Shown here one piece after another: positions 11,173 through 42,339 of a stretch of DNA of 64,000 nt; positions within the stretch are counted from its first letter, which is position 1; each line of letters starts with the position of its first letter. The notes under the pieces are model-generated. The model had not been told where the DNA came from. It saw only the letters and a list, made by a program, of their open reading frames with translations, and made no database searches. This DNA is from an uncultured Clostridia bacterium. GTDB taxonomy: Bacteria; Bacillota; Clostridia; TANB77; CAG-508. The stretch lies in contig CANQHI010000001.1 of assembly GCA_947623725.1 (NCBI GenBank), positions 37,442-101,441 of the forward strand, given 5' to 3'. Position numbers and translations under genes: made by a program.

Positions 11173-11301
11173 AAAGATTTAAAACATAATAGTTTGCAAT
11201 AGTGCGTAGCGACCAAAGGCGAAGCCTGCGAATGGAGCGATGAAACTTTTAAGTTTCATCTGCGACAACAAACTATAAAAACTATTATGTTTTAAATCTT
11301 T
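11173..11301. repeat. intergenic nested-hairpin element, copy B (full core)
   Basis: Perfect 22-nt AT-only inverted arms at 11173-11194 and 11280-11301. The core reads GCGTAGCGACCAAAGGCGAAGCCTGCGAATGGAGC, then an internal 10-bp hairpin (11239-11260), then TGCGACAACAA. Lies just 3' of obg. Confidence 0.75.
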
Positions 11302-31270: not shown

Positions 31271-32400
31271 AAATTACTCCTTTTTTTATCTTTTTGTTTC
31301 TTAATTCATTTATTGTTTTTATTATGTATAAGATTATCATAGAAAATATTAAAGATAATAATATTATTAAGATTAGCCTACACATATAGCTTAAATAATA
31401 AAATTTATTATGTATTATGTTAATAATCCATATATGATTTAAGTACAATGGCAAACTTAATTCTTCTAAATAATAAAATAATTTATTATTTGCCAAATTA
31501 TAAAAAATCGTCTTTTCACTGCATGCTATTGAAATTGATACTGCTAATATTAATACTGCTACAAAGTCGTATTTAACATTTTTGCCAATTTGAGCAAGAA
31601 CAAATATAGATAAAAAGCCACCTATTTCTATAATCGTTAATAATATTTTTGAGATCAAATTAAAGTTAATATTTTTCATTTTTTCTGAGATTTCATATAC
31701 TATTGTACCTAATGATAATTCAAAAAATCCTCTTAGGAAACCCTTATACGCAAATCCTGTCCATTCCCAAGGGCCACGTAAATTTCCATATTTTTGCGAT
31801 AAATAACCACCTATAAAAATAATAATTATTGGTGCTATTAAATAAGTAAAATTCTTTTTATATTTTCTTAATAATGGATATATGATAAGTATTGATATAA
31901 GCATTACAGATATATACCATGTTATACCTGATATATATGTCGTTTTAACACCTGACATATCTAAGAAAATTACATTCCATATTGAATTTATATAATGTTT
32001 TAATGAATATCCATTGAGTATACTATCAACTATCATAAACATTACAAAAGCTGAACAAGTATAAGGTAAAAATTTTTTTACTTTACCTAATATATATGAC
32101 ATTGTTTCTTTTCCTATATTTGAACAATCTTCCTTAACACTAAATGCTTTTTTTGCTATAAAATATCCTGATACTATAAAAAAGAATTCTACTCCTATAG
32201 AACCATATTTTAGTAAAGTGCTTTCATTTCCTTTATAATTGCCAGTAGTATGAAAAATCGCTATCATCAATGCAAACATAAACTTCCAGAAGCTTATTAT
32301 TCCATTATGTATCTTCCTATTATTTAATGTTACGTGTGTGTGTGTGTGTGTGTGTGTACTCTCGCAACGGTTTTAAGTTTTCTTCATTTTTTTTATTCAT
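31257..32400 (-). CDS. acyltransferase family 3, phase-variable, currently out of frame
   Basis: ATG at 32400 follows a GGGAG RBS. Leader MNKKNEENLKPLREY is followed by (AC)12. The acyltransferase frame is open through the tract (..VTLNNRKIHNGIISFWKFMFALMIAIFH..) and lies +1 relative to the ATG. Confidence 0.75.
32334..32357 (-). repeat. (GT)12 / (AC)12 dinucleotide tract in the 5' coding region
   Basis: Read directly. Confidence 0.95.
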
Positions 32401-32433
32401 ATCATTTTCACTCCCTTATATGCTTTATAAATT

Positions 32434-33888
32434 TTAGGTATTTTTATTTGTATTACTAAATATATTTATTATACGTTTTAGTAAATTATTTGTATATTTA
32501 TCCTTCAAAATAAATAAACTTCCAAAATAAACAACTATTCCTACTACTATTTGCGAAATAAGTTTTATTATATTTAATGAATAGCTTAACTTATTCATTA
32601 GTAATATAATTATAAACATTATAATTCCAGATATTAAATAATTTTTTATTTCAATTATAATTTGTTTAATATCAAAGTATTTTCTAATATAATAAAACTG
32701 GATTACAGTAACTGATGTTTCTGCCAAAACTGTTGCAACCGCCGCACCAATAGACATAAATTTTGGTATTAATAAAAAGTTAAATATCAAATTTACAATC
32801 GCTCCAACAATTACAGAAATTGTATATTGTTTTTGTTGCTTTGTAGGTAATAAAAACTGCGTTCCGATTACATTACTTAGTCCAATCATTAGTAATATAG
32901 GACTTATGACACATGTTATTATTGTGGATTTTTCATATCCTTTACCTAAAAACATTGGTATAAATGTTTTTGAAACTATTAAAATTCCAAATATCATTGG
33001 AATTGATAGAAAATAAACAAATTTAAATGAATTCATAATATTTTCTTTAATTTCTTCTTTTTTTCCATTTGCAAATTTATTTGCTATTCTTGGTAACATA
33101 ACTGTACCGAGAGATGTTATTATTGTTAAAATTAATTTAATAATTTTCTGTGATTGTTCATAAAATCCAACTTCAGCTTTATCGTTTATTATACTTCCTA
33201 TCATAACTTTATCAAGTACAGTATAAATTTGAGTCGCTATTTGCGGTATAAACAATGCTAATGTAGGCTTTATATGTTTCGCTATATTTAAATCTTTAAT
33301 TTTTACTTTCGTTAAATATTTTGGTAGGTAAAACCATAAAGATAAATTACCTGCAGTGGTTGATAATGCATATATAAGTAAATATTTTCCTACATCATTT
33401 TCTGATTTTATAAATATAAATATACATATTATACTAATAATTTTTACTATTAAATTTCTACCAATGATTTTTTTAAATTCTTCTAATCCTTGAAAGAAAC
33501 AACTTATATCAAAACAGTTTGCAAAAATTTCTAATAAAAGAATTTTATAGTATACTTTATATTCTCCATGAGAAACATATGTAATGTAAAATACTATCAT
33601 TGAAATCATTAAAGTAATAAATCTTAATATAATTATTTCCCAAAATACTTTACTTCTTTTTTCAGTACTGTCTTGCACATATGCAACTTCTCTTTGTGCA
33701 TATATAGCTATTCCTAAAGTACCAAAAAGTATAAAATAAGTTGTTACAGATATTGTATAACTATATATTCCTATTCCTTCAGCACCTAATACTCTTGATA
33801 TATAAGGAGTTGTTATTAATGGTAATATCATTAGTAAAATTTGATATGCTACATTATATATGTAATTTTTAGCTACTGATTTTTTCAT
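32434..33888 (-). CDS. wzx: oligosaccharide flippase (Wzx, MOP superfamily)
   Basis: 484 aa, about 12-14 TM. The N-terminus NYIYNVAYQILLMILPLITTPYISRVLG is typical of polysaccharide flippases. Confidence 0.8.
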   Translation of the reverse strand: MKKSVAKNYIYNVAYQILLMILPLITTPYISRVLGAEGIGIYSYTISVTTYFILFGTLGIAIYAQREVAYVQDSTEKRSKVFWEIIILRFITLMISMIVFYITYVSHGEYKVYYKILLLEIFANCFDISCFFQGLEEFKKIIGRNLIVKIISIICIFIFIKSENDVGKYLLIYALSTTAGNLSLWFYLPKYLTKVKIKDLNIAKHIKPTLALFIPQIATQIYTVLDKVMIGSIINDKAEVGFYEQSQKIIKLILTIITSLGTVMLPRIANKFANGKKEEIKENIMNSFKFVYFLSIPMIFGILIVSKTFIPMFLGKGYEKSTIITCVISPILLMIGLSNVIGTQFLLPTKQQKQYTISVIVGAIVNLIFNFLLIPKFMSIGAAVATVLAETSVTVIQFYYIRKYFDIKQIIIEIKNYLISGIIMFIIILLMNKLSYSLNIIKLISQIVVGIVVYFGSLFILKDKYTNNLLKRIINIFSNTNKNT

Positions 33889-35125
33889 TTTTTCTTCCTC
33901 GTATTTTATTTTTTATACTTGTATATGACAATAATTTTATATTCCCTATTTCAATTAATGGCAATAATGAAATAACAAAAATATTTCTTCCTATATTAAC
34001 TAGATGTTGTTCTACAAAAGACCATATACAAATAAATAATAAAGAAAATATTAGCCACTTATTTTTATCATAATTATGTGTTAAGGTAAAAGTATAACCT
34101 AATAATACTATACTGCAAAAAACGATTCCATAATCTAACATAACTCTTGCATACGAACTATCTACATAATTATAATTAAAACTTTCCATTTCGTCTGTGT
34201 CTATATATCCATGACCACCCCAACCATTCCATTCTATTTGTTCACCAAATAATGTAACTCCATACTCTTTATAAGCTTCACTTGTATATTTTAATCTATT
34301 ACTTAATAACTCATTAACTCTAATAGCAAAGCTATTATTATTTGTATATAATAAAGTTATAAAATTAAACATTAAAAATAATATTATAGGTAATGTGCAA
34401 CATAATATTTTAAATACTTTTTTATTCATAAAATAATTATATAATTTTTTTACAAATTTAAACTTAGATAAAAGCATTATTCCTAATATAATAGAAACTA
34501 ATATAAAGCTCAATCTTCCATCTGTAAATTTATATAAAAATATATTTATCGTTTCTAAAATCATTAATTCAATATATGTTGCTTTTGATTTTCTAATATA
34601 AAAATACATTATTATTATTGAAAGATATATTCCTATAGCATCTGTTGCATATACAAACCCTAAAGAATGTCTAACTATACTTCCTCTATAAAAAATCCAG
34701 TCCGGTATTATTCCCATTAATGATAAACTTATTGTTATTAAAAAAATAAATATAAAAATATTAAAAGTAATTTTTATTAATTTATCAAAATCTAGTTTTC
34801 TTAAAGAAATTAAGAAGATTAGCAATAAAAAAACATTCTTGTTATGTGCCACCAAAAAAATTAATATTGACAATATTGTTAACAATATTATTGTTAATGT
34901 AATATTACTTCCATTCTTCCAATCTATAATTATTCTTATACCAAATACTATATAGCATATATATCTAATTATTTTCATACATACAAGCAATATATCATTT
35001 GATAAAAATAAAGATGTATTATTAATTAATAAAATCATCATATATATACCAAAAAAAACATACATAAAACTATCTGATTTTATATAATTTTTTATCTTGT
35101 TATTCATAAAATACACGTCCTTCAT
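33869..35125 (-). CDS. O-antigen polymerase/ligase-like membrane protein (Wzy-like)
   Basis: 418 aa polytopic protein with one large external loop, adjacent to wzx. No strong motif, so the call rests on context. Confidence 0.55.
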   Translation of the reverse strand: MKDVYFMNNKIKNYIKSDSFMYVFFGIYMMILLINNTSLFLSNDILLVCMKIIRYICYIVFGIRIIIDWKNGSNITLTIILLTILSILIFLVAHNKNVFLLLIFLISLRKLDFDKLIKITFNIFIFIFLITISLSLMGIIPDWIFYRGSIVRHSLGFVYATDAIGIYLSIIIMYFYIRKSKATYIELMILETINIFLYKFTDGRLSFILVSIILGIMLLSKFKFVKKLYNYFMNKKVFKILCCTLPIILFLMFNFITLLYTNNNSFAIRVNELLSNRLKYTSEAYKEYGVTLFGEQIEWNGWGGHGYIDTDEMESFNYNYVDSSYARVMLDYGIVFCSIVLLGYTFTLTHNYDKNKWLIFSLLFICIWSFVEQHLVNIGRNIFVISLLPLIEIGNIKLLSYTSIKNKIRGRKNEKISS

Positions 35126-41616: not shown

Positions 41617-42339
41617 CTATATTGCCCCAGTTTTATTTATTATAGATATTATTGTTTTAAAGAAAATCTTTATATCTAACCATAAAGAAATATTTGTGGC
41701 ATAATAATATTCCATTTTAACTCTCTCATCATAAGAAATTTTGCTTCTTCCATGTGATGCCCAATATCCTGTTATACCTGGCTTAACTTTTAATATATCA
41801 TCTTTATATTTTCCAAATTTTTTCAATTCATTTGGAACAACTGCTCTTGGACCTATCAAGCTCATCTTTCCCATTAATACATCTATAAAATTAGGAAATT
41901 CATCTAATGAACTTTTTCTTAATATCTTTCCAACTTTAGTTATTCTAGGGTCTTCTGAAAGTTTTCTATTTTTTTCCCATTCTTTTTTTAACTGCTCATC
42001 TTCTGATAATATCTTTTCTAATTTTTTGTCTGCATCAACACACATCGTTCTATATTTATGCATTTTAAATGGTTTTCCGTTTTTTCCTATTCTAATATGA
42101 GAATAAAATATAGGTCCACTTTCTTTATTATATTTATTAATAATCCATACAATTACTGTAAGAGGTATTAATATAATAATTCCTACAACACCTGCTATTA
42201 TATCTAATACCCTTTTTATAACTAAATATATATTTTTACTGATATCTTCAAAACTTCTCTTTTTTATTTTTTTATTGATATGTTTTATTGTTTTGTTTTC
42301 TTCTTTTTCAGCAGTTTGCATATCAGTCAATTTTCTCAC
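41617..42339 (-). CDS. undecaprenyl-phosphate sugar phosphotransferase (bacterial sugar transferase family)
   Basis: 240 aa with one TM, then the KFRTM-like block (KMHKYRTM), DEFPNF and SLIGPR motifs. Confidence 0.85.
   Translation of the reverse strand: MRKLTDMQTAEKEENKTIKHINKKIKKRSFEDISKNIYLVIKRVLDIIAGVVGIIILIPLTVIVWIINKYNKESGPIFYSHIRIGKNGKPFKMHKYRTMCVDADKKLEKILSEDEQLKKEWEKNRKLSEDPRITKVGKILRKSSLDEFPNFIDVLMGKMSLIGPRAVVPNELKKFGKYKDDILKVKPGITGYWASHGRSKISYDERVKMEYYYATNISLWLDIKIFFKTIISIINKTGAI

Follow-up and report, generated by a model that had tools for sequence, protein, structure and literature searches.

A dinucleotide repeat in the 5′ coding region of an acyltransferase-3 gene as a probable phase-variation switch in a polysaccharide locus of an uncultured Clostridia bacterium

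An acyltransferase-3 (AT3) gene within a putative surface polysaccharide locus of an uncultured Clostridia bacterium carries a perfect (AC)12 repeat in its leader, and with good confidence we read this repeat as a slipped-strand switch that would act at translation and make the O-acylation of a Wzx-type surface polysaccharide phase-variable. The window, by which we mean the whole stretch of 64,000 nucleotides that was analysed, has a G+C content of ~25%, and the features on which the argument is built are collected in Table 1. Observed are the tract itself, the arithmetic of the reading frames on both of its sides, a conserved N-terminus that is fused to the leader, and a polymorphism in repeat length between otherwise identical sequences. 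In the proposed mechanism, slipped-strand mispairing in replication would add or remove AC units in a presumably reversible manner, and at unit numbers of n = 1 mod 3 translation would proceed from the Shine-Dalgarno (SD) sequence and the ATG at 32400, cross a (Thr-His)n linker and continue through the conserved N-terminus to the remainder of the enzyme.

Table 1. Features of the window around the repeat tract, the two sister tracts and the polysaccharide locus.
Feature	Position	Strand	Basis
(AC)12 simple-sequence repeat, putative hypermutable switch element	32334..32357	-	Tandem Repeats Finder and sequence
Shine-Dalgarno-like AAGGGAG, 10 nt 5′ of the leader ATG	32411..32417	-	Read from sequence
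Leader ORF, present OFF frame: ATG 32400, 26 codons (MNKKNEENLKPLREYTHTHTHTRNIK), stop 32322-32320	32320..32400	-	Translation
Conserved acyltransferase N-terminal part (VTLNNRKIHNGIISFWKF), +1 frame; K40 of K-X10-H and first half of TM1	32280..32333	-	Frame translation, Pfam, homologues
Rest of the acyltransferase-3 gene to its stop; first in-frame ATG encodes Met42 in full-length numbering	31257..32279	-	ORF and PF01757
(AC)9 in the leader of the second AT3 gene (ATG 23317, body to 22242)	23271..23288	-	Tandem Repeats Finder, translation, Pfam
(AC)12 in the leader of a PMT_2-type membrane glycosyltransferase (43746-45299), leader ATG 45299	45247..45270	-	Tandem Repeats Finder, translation, Pfam
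LytR_cpsA_psr	42493-43569	-	Pfam
Bac_transf	41617-42339	-	Pfam
Candidate Wzy, polytopic ORF	33869-35125	-	Pfam and NCBIfam without match
wzx-type flippase (Polysacc_synt), immediately 5′ of AT3, 33-nt gap, stop 32436-32434	32434..33888	-	Pfam
glf (UDP-galactopyranose mutase; GLF), immediately 3′ of AT3	30131..31270	-	Pfam
FkbH-like protein	28274-30070	-	
Glyoxalase-family ORF	27335-27760	-	
MBOAT-family membrane acyltransferase	24491-26020	-	

The tract is an array of period 2 with 12.0 copies and 100% matches (Tandem Repeats Finder), as the preliminary description of this DNA had reported for the leader of the gene, and it starts 43 nt past the leader ATG, inside the 5′ coding region. The string ACACACACAC is confined to three tracts of the window and had 0 matches in 100 dinucleotide-preserving shuffles; because even (AC)5 was present in 0/100 shuffles, the tract at 32334-32357 did not arise by chance. 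All of its frames code for (Thr-His)n. Translation from ATG 32400 agrees with the earlier account of a leader that enters (Thr-His)n and ends at the stop at 32320-32322, which at n = 12 falls 11 nt past the tract; here ribosomes would halt and no functional enzyme would be made. The acyltransferase frame (..STHTHTHTHVTLNNRKIHNGIISFWKFMFALMIAIFH..) is indeed +1 relative to this ATG, and it stays open from just 5′ of the tract (..NRCESTHTHTHTHVTLNNRKIHNGIISFWKFMFALMIAIFH..) until its stop codon at 31257, with the AT3 body open over 31257-32333 on the minus strand. Tracts rebuilt in silico with n = 8 to 16 gave full-length products only at n = 10, 13 and 16 (379, 381 and 383 aa), the remaining lengths giving products of 20-28 aa only, and fusion of the leader to the AT3 body needs n = 1 mod 3 (10, 13, 16). 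The frame arithmetic given earlier, by which one unit gained (n = 13) or two units lost restore the frame, is therefore right, and the statement that the gene is currently OFF holds for the consensus sequence, in which n = 12 is out of frame.

An alternative in-frame start between the tract and 32279, which the preliminary description had raised as a possibility, was looked for: in the acyltransferase frame no ATG, GTG or TTG lies between the upstream stop and 32279, only ATA codons, and the first codon of this kind is the ATG at 32279 itself. The ATG at 32305 was rejected as a start, since it lies in the third frame and reads M-E-stop. ATA is a very poor start codon; a weak SD-like AGGAAG lies 12 nt 5′ of the in-frame ATA codons at 32300-32295, and together they may permit trace expression of a slightly shortened protein at n = 12. 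At this length no normal start codon gives access to the conserved enzyme form.

The conserved form is defined by comparison with the AT3 family. The reconstructed 381-aa protein matches the Pfam profile Acyl_transf_3 (PF01757) with 69.5 bits at a cutoff of 31, residues 37-358 corresponding to profile positions 5-325 of 326, and as this is its sole Pfam match the protein has no fused SGNH domain and is of the AT3-only type. The match begins at S37 and therefore starts upstream of Met42. A near-invariant segment, HNGIISFWK, is encoded 5′ of ATG 32279: among 35 aligned homologues K40, F41 and H51 are invariant, H32, N33, G34, I36 and W39 are at least 90% conserved, and nearly all of the best 120 database homologues start a few residues ahead of the KHNGIISFWKFMF motif (KHNGIISFWKF). 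The stretch K40-FMFALMIAIF-H51 fits the R/K-X10-H motif of the first transmembrane segment (TM1), a motif that is essential in OafA/OafB (AT3 review PMC9558356). Hydropathy places TM1 at about residues 31-52, so that a start at Met42 (ATG 32279) would halve it and would also strip the product of seven residues that are invariant or nearly so, K40 included. Because the residues encoded 5′ of 32279 are invariant or at least 90% conserved and no other start is present, we take the leader-fused protein to be the real gene product. The N-terminal tails of the homologues are 1 to about 70 residues long, and since they vary in length a variable (TH)n linker should be tolerated. An exact-protein look-up with the 340-aa shortened ORF gave no match, a search of NCBIfam returned no match for the AT3 protein and no equivalog, and a PDB sequence search returned no homologue of it.

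These data also bear on the view that the enzyme is expressed independently of the tract, from ATG 32279 or from an ATA codon, the leader ORF being an unrelated upstream peptide. We regard this as very improbable. Several database entries do begin at an internal Met (340, 338 and 334 aa; P0022, P0036 and P0140), and GGAAG lies 3 nt before ATG 32279 in addition to the AGGAAG ahead of the ATA codons; however, the short entries that were checked, P0140 and P0022, turned out to be frame-shifted leader alleles, from locus L089 with (AC)12 and from locus L129 with a decayed tract, respectively. Moreover, every in-frame allele is read from its leader ATG across the tract without interruption, whereas a start at Met42 would come at the cost of K40, the other conserved residues and half of TM1.

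Length heterogeneity, which the preliminary description had suggested looking for, is present between contigs. Sibling contigs were recovered through exact-protein look-ups of neighbouring genes. One of them (L004; ENA ERZ27249368) shows 0 mismatches to the window in 2529 nt upstream plus 291 nt downstream of the tract (2820), with (AC)10 instead of (AC)12 between identical flanks and with a 25-nt insertion in the leader, and a more distant relative (L002; Logan ERR14656744; 93.9% identity to the window) carries (AC)8 followed by GCGC, its leader being in frame with the AT3 N-terminus (P0002). A further contig of the first assembly (L001; ERZ27249368) is 100% identical to the window over 2380 nt with the tract lying outside the contig, and another (L005; ERZ27249370; 99.94% identity) ends inside the tract, which is only a hint of mixed lengths. 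The insertion in L004 (2529-2553, at window ~32372) consists of AAACAAATAAATTATG flanked by duplicated AAACCGTTG; the net length change relative to the window is +21 nt, and hence the SD-proximal ATG stays in the OFF frame, and the insertion creates a new ATG without SD that is in frame with the enzyme. As L004 has a coverage of only about 2x (2-3x among the sibling contigs), the insertion may be an assembly artefact, and with this coverage and the 25-nt insertion L004 is not a clean single-variable comparison. We also observed a contig (L006; ENA ERZ27249337) of which nt 1-128 align to the window in the orientation opposite to 122-1483, within the AT3 gene, probably because assembly at low coverage has produced a chimera. 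A metagenome scan for the gene's own leader and tract (CCGTTGCGNGAGT(AC)5) gave no match.

A second alternative is that the OFF call is an artefact of assembly or sequencing and that the true majority length is 13 or 10, with the gene ON. A 24-nt tract lies well within one short read, and consensus callers normally give the majority length; moreover, the independent contigs show discrete lengths, 10 and 12, without the plus-or-minus-one spread of stutter. These points make an artefact quite improbable in our estimation, although PCR and polymerases tend to stutter on dinucleotide runs, the sequence apparently derives from a metagenome assembly (its best relatives are MAGs, and the sibling contigs have the low coverage given above), and the end of L005 in the tract suggests that the assembler had trouble there. 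An artefact would alter only the assignment of the present state as OFF, because the tract would still be hypermutable.

The cleanest case of length variation comes from the homologous AT3 tract of two other loci, L087 and L088, which stem from two different assemblies. Only 1 mismatch separates them over about 21 kb, but their tracts are (AC)11 and (AC)17, respectively, both ON. The AT3 protein of L087, L088 and L089 is a paralogue that is ~50% identical to the AT3 protein of the window, and its tract is homologous. In these sequences the AC tract is the hypervariable site against near-zero background divergence, and slippage would be the cause. The homologous AT3 gene of L089 has (AC)12 and is OFF, and it has been called from an internal Met as a 334-aa product; the AT3 tracts of L003, with (AC)14, and of L090, with (AC)11, are in frame and thus ON. 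Judged from the reading frames, ON and OFF lengths both exist in nature. In L087-L090, which are related polysaccharide loci, the AT3 tracts comprise 11, 17, 12 and 7 units and that of a Glucos_trans_II gene comprises 10, with tracts at 10030-10063 (L087/L088), 218-241 and 1423-1436 (L089), and 10030-10051 and 11183-11202 (L090), and L089 contains two adjacent AT3 genes with nearly identical leaders. An AT3-alignment scan of species-representative genomes gave 80 loci, none of them from the window's own genome, and a 5′ AC tract on the AT3 gene was found in 1/80 (L008, on the same contig as L003). Because of this ratio, the AC tract is not general to the AT3 subfamily but confined to a narrow lineage.

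The window contains two sister tracts of the same layout, consisting of SD, ATG, a short Lys-rich leader and the tract. The second AT3 gene (22242-23317) is at present OFF, and tract lengths of n = 8 or 11 would switch it ON; its leader, MKKAETQEAV(HT)n, measures exactly 29 nt from ATG to tract. The leader of the PMT_2 gene is likewise OFF, and its frame opens at n = 11 or 14 and stops after about 116 codons. The 438-aa PMT_2 ORF lies in another frame than its leader, and a second frameshift is consequently present near 44990, which could be due to a pseudogene, a sequencing error or something else. Thus all three tracts of the window are OFF, with a chance probability of about 0.3 if frames are random.

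That 3/3 AC-tract genes of the window are out of frame, and that the PMT_2 gene has this second frameshift, fits a third alternative, according to which the AT3 gene is a decaying pseudogene, the AC run a neutral microsatellite and the frame shift an inactivating mutation rather than a switch. It is also in line with L129 (Logan SRR27675774), in which the AT3 tracts at 5885-5935 and 7080-7125 have decayed to the interrupted forms GTATACACACGGG and (AC)3AT(AC)3, and in which the first AT3 gene (GTATACACACGGG) is fixed out of frame; these tracts look like the end stage of such switches. We nevertheless consider a pseudogene improbable. The body of the gene is intact across 358 codons and gives a full-length Pfam match, the tract is perfect and long with its 12 units, and a single slippage step (+1 unit) restores the frame. 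Furthermore, AT3 genes of only 50-56% identity retain a tract at this position, several of their alleles being in frame, and in L002, the closest relative, the leader and the enzyme share one frame.

The proposed role of a switched AT3 enzyme follows from the locus in which its gene resides. Every gene between about 43.6 and 22.2 kb lies on the minus strand, in the order LytR-CpsA-Psr, Bac_transf, PGI, GT2, Glyphos_transf, GT2, IspD, epimerase, candidate Wzy, Wzx and AT3, followed by Glf, FkbH-like, glyoxalase-family, SDR, MBOAT, an ORF of no family and the second AT3. The position of the gene between glf and wzx, given in the preliminary description, is thus borne out, and this same-strand cluster holds parts of a putative Wzx/Wzy locus, namely Bac_transf, LytR_cpsA_psr, Wzx, GT2, Glyphos_transf, IspD and epimerase, with a polymerase candidate that has no family match. 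The ORF at 33869-35125 is likely the Wzy polymerase. Within or beside the polysaccharide clusters, Pfam gave no match for 33869-35125, 45325-47082, 23393-24451 and 48242-49279, and NCBIfam none for the first three of these. The MBOAT and FkbH-like genes of the cluster suggest further acyl or glyceryl decorations of the polymer. The stop region of the AT3 gene overlaps the start of glf by 14 nt and a terminator scan found no terminator-like sites between wzx, AT3 and glf; as glf has its own AAGGAG ribosome-binding site, an OFF state of AT3 need not silence it. A promoter scan was uninformative (77 promoter-like sites versus 87.5 expected). The window also contains GerA and SpoIIP genes, from which we conclude that the host is a spore-forming Firmicute, and the genomes closest to it are MAGs from rabbit gut and mouse gut that carry the label uncultured Clostridia or Bacilli; the organism itself is known from metagenomes only.

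That the AT3 enzyme modifies the repeat unit of its own locus, as proposed earlier, is a reasonable inference from position. In the ON state it would most likely O-acylate a sugar of the polysaccharide that is made by this locus. The AT3 gene adjoins or is near glf also in L003, L087, L090 and L129, and this recurrent linkage points to galactofuranose as a possible target sugar, which by analogy is plausible. A change in acylation would alter the surface antigenicity and the phage-receptor properties in part of the population.

The leader around the AC tract may have a wider distribution than the AT3 family. A stereotyped leader is common to the two sister tracts of the window and to L003, L087, L088, L089 and L090, with exactly 29 nt from ATG to tract, an upstream flank that ends in TGT and a downstream flank of GG; the TGT-ending flank reads GATACTGT in L003, L087-L089 and the first tract of L090. 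Compared without gaps, the 29-nt leaders of this group share 20-29 of 29 positions, whereas the leader of the tract at 32334-32357 reaches only 13-17 of 29. The downstream flank in L002, GG-AACATTAAATAAT, resembles the flank in L129. In L090 the stereotyped leader also stands ahead of a Glucos_trans_II gene. A scan of metagenome and viral contigs with a generic leader pattern, a small and pattern-selected sample, gave only about 10/36 matches that are low-GC bacterial leaders; most matches were eukaryotic microsatellites (GC 0.35-0.56) and were set aside. An (AC)11 leader in L021 was discarded as it runs into no long ORF. In one match of the scan (L109, n = 10) the leader precedes an N6_N4 DNA methylase whose frame opens directly at the tract, the leader being out of frame, which makes this gene a candidate phase-variable methylase. 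L127/L095 (n = 9) have the leader joined in frame to a NUMOD4 protein, here on an IMG/VR viral contig, and in L097, L102, L110 and L128 (n = 16-18) it is a separate small ORF, one frame of which ends in TAATG overlapping the next start codon. This next gene encodes 161 aa and occurs also on a viral contig. The leader of L108 reads ..DTV GT(AC)n with n = 10.

With somewhat less than even confidence we therefore put forward that the low-GC (about 25%) gut Clostridia-type clade and its phages share a lineage-wide, semi-portable (AC)n leader module that would place many unrelated genes under phase control, the tract described here being a diverged copy of it. The cassette would consist of SD, ATG, exactly 29 nt (..D-T-V) and GT(AC)nGG, and its carriers would include AT3 acyltransferases, the PMT_2 glycosyltransferase, the Glucos_trans_II protein, the N6_N4 DNA methylase and the NUMOD4 protein. 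Where the leader is a separate ORF, the TAATG overlap might act as phase-variable translational coupling. The tract at 32334-32357 would have diverged in such a way that its downstream flank matches the family, whereas its upstream leader does not.

Repeat-driven phase variation of surface glycans is textbook knowledge in Haemophilus, Neisseria, Campylobacter, Helicobacter and pneumococcus, while inversion-based switches dominate the literature on gut Firmicutes. A full-text literature search returned no report of AC-repeat switches in Clostridia, gut MAGs or uncultured low-GC gut Firmicutes. If the three (AC)n switches in the surface-polysaccharide clusters of the window work independently, a single genotype could give up to eight surface states, a potential that bears on phage escape and on host immune recognition in gut commensals and could in this way be of selective benefit. 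The finding also matters for annotation, as gene callers shorten or split such genes, with called products of 340, 334 and 33 aa as examples, and assembly is interrupted at the tracts.

Among the genes with a known function, oafA of Haemophilus influenzae encodes an AT3 O-acetyltransferase of heptose III of the LOS that is switched by a 5′ tetranucleotide repeat (PMC9558356). Both systems, likened here through their descriptions as AT3-family, combine a membrane O-acyltransferase acting on a surface glycan, in our case by prediction, with a repeat in the 5′ coding region that turns translation on and off; oafA differs in its tetranucleotide unit, in contrast to AC here, in its Gram-negative pathogenic host, in its LOS target and in its location outside a Wzx/Wzy operon. 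In Streptococcus pneumoniae, the number of (TA)n units in wciZ sets the acetylation of the capsule and thereby 15B versus 15C, according to the account of van Selm et al. 2003 that is cited in PMC5266551. By that account, wciZ is an O-acetyltransferase gene with a dinucleotide repeat in the Wzx/Wzy capsule locus of a Gram-positive species, and the AT3 gene with its AC tract in a putative Wzx/Wzy locus would be its counterpart here; the two differ in that wciZ has (TA)n, a single switch per locus and a cultured pathogen as host, while here (AC)n occurs in three tracts of the window. In logic and in genomic context wciZ would be the closest analogue. The wciZ tract is generally placed in the body of the gene, and wciZ is not known to have a separate N-terminal leader for it.

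The pneumococcal enzymes WcjE and WciG are stand-alone AT3 proteins of cps loci that O-acetylate galactofuranose or phosphoglycerol of the repeat unit (PMC9558356). Similarly, the gene described here is AT3-only, adjoins glf and lies near a glycerophosphotransferase gene, but WcjE and WciG are lost via irreversible mutations (e.g., serotype 11E) rather than through a repeat switch, and the substrate in our case is assigned by analogy. The presence of several surface-structure genes per genome with 5′ coding repeats, which gives combinatorial ON/OFF states, is a likeness to the oipA-type CT-repeat switches of Helicobacter pylori and to the 'phasome' of Campylobacter and Neisseria. These hosts differ in being Proteobacteria or Campylobacterota, and their tracts are mostly homopolymeric G/C or CT tracts; to our knowledge, no shared leader sequence has been reported among these genes. 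What sets the present system apart from oafA and wciZ is the AC unit, the dedicated (Thr-His)n leader, the three switches and the uncultured low-GC gut Firmicute as host, so that the mechanism is well known and the host lineage and the repeat type are new.
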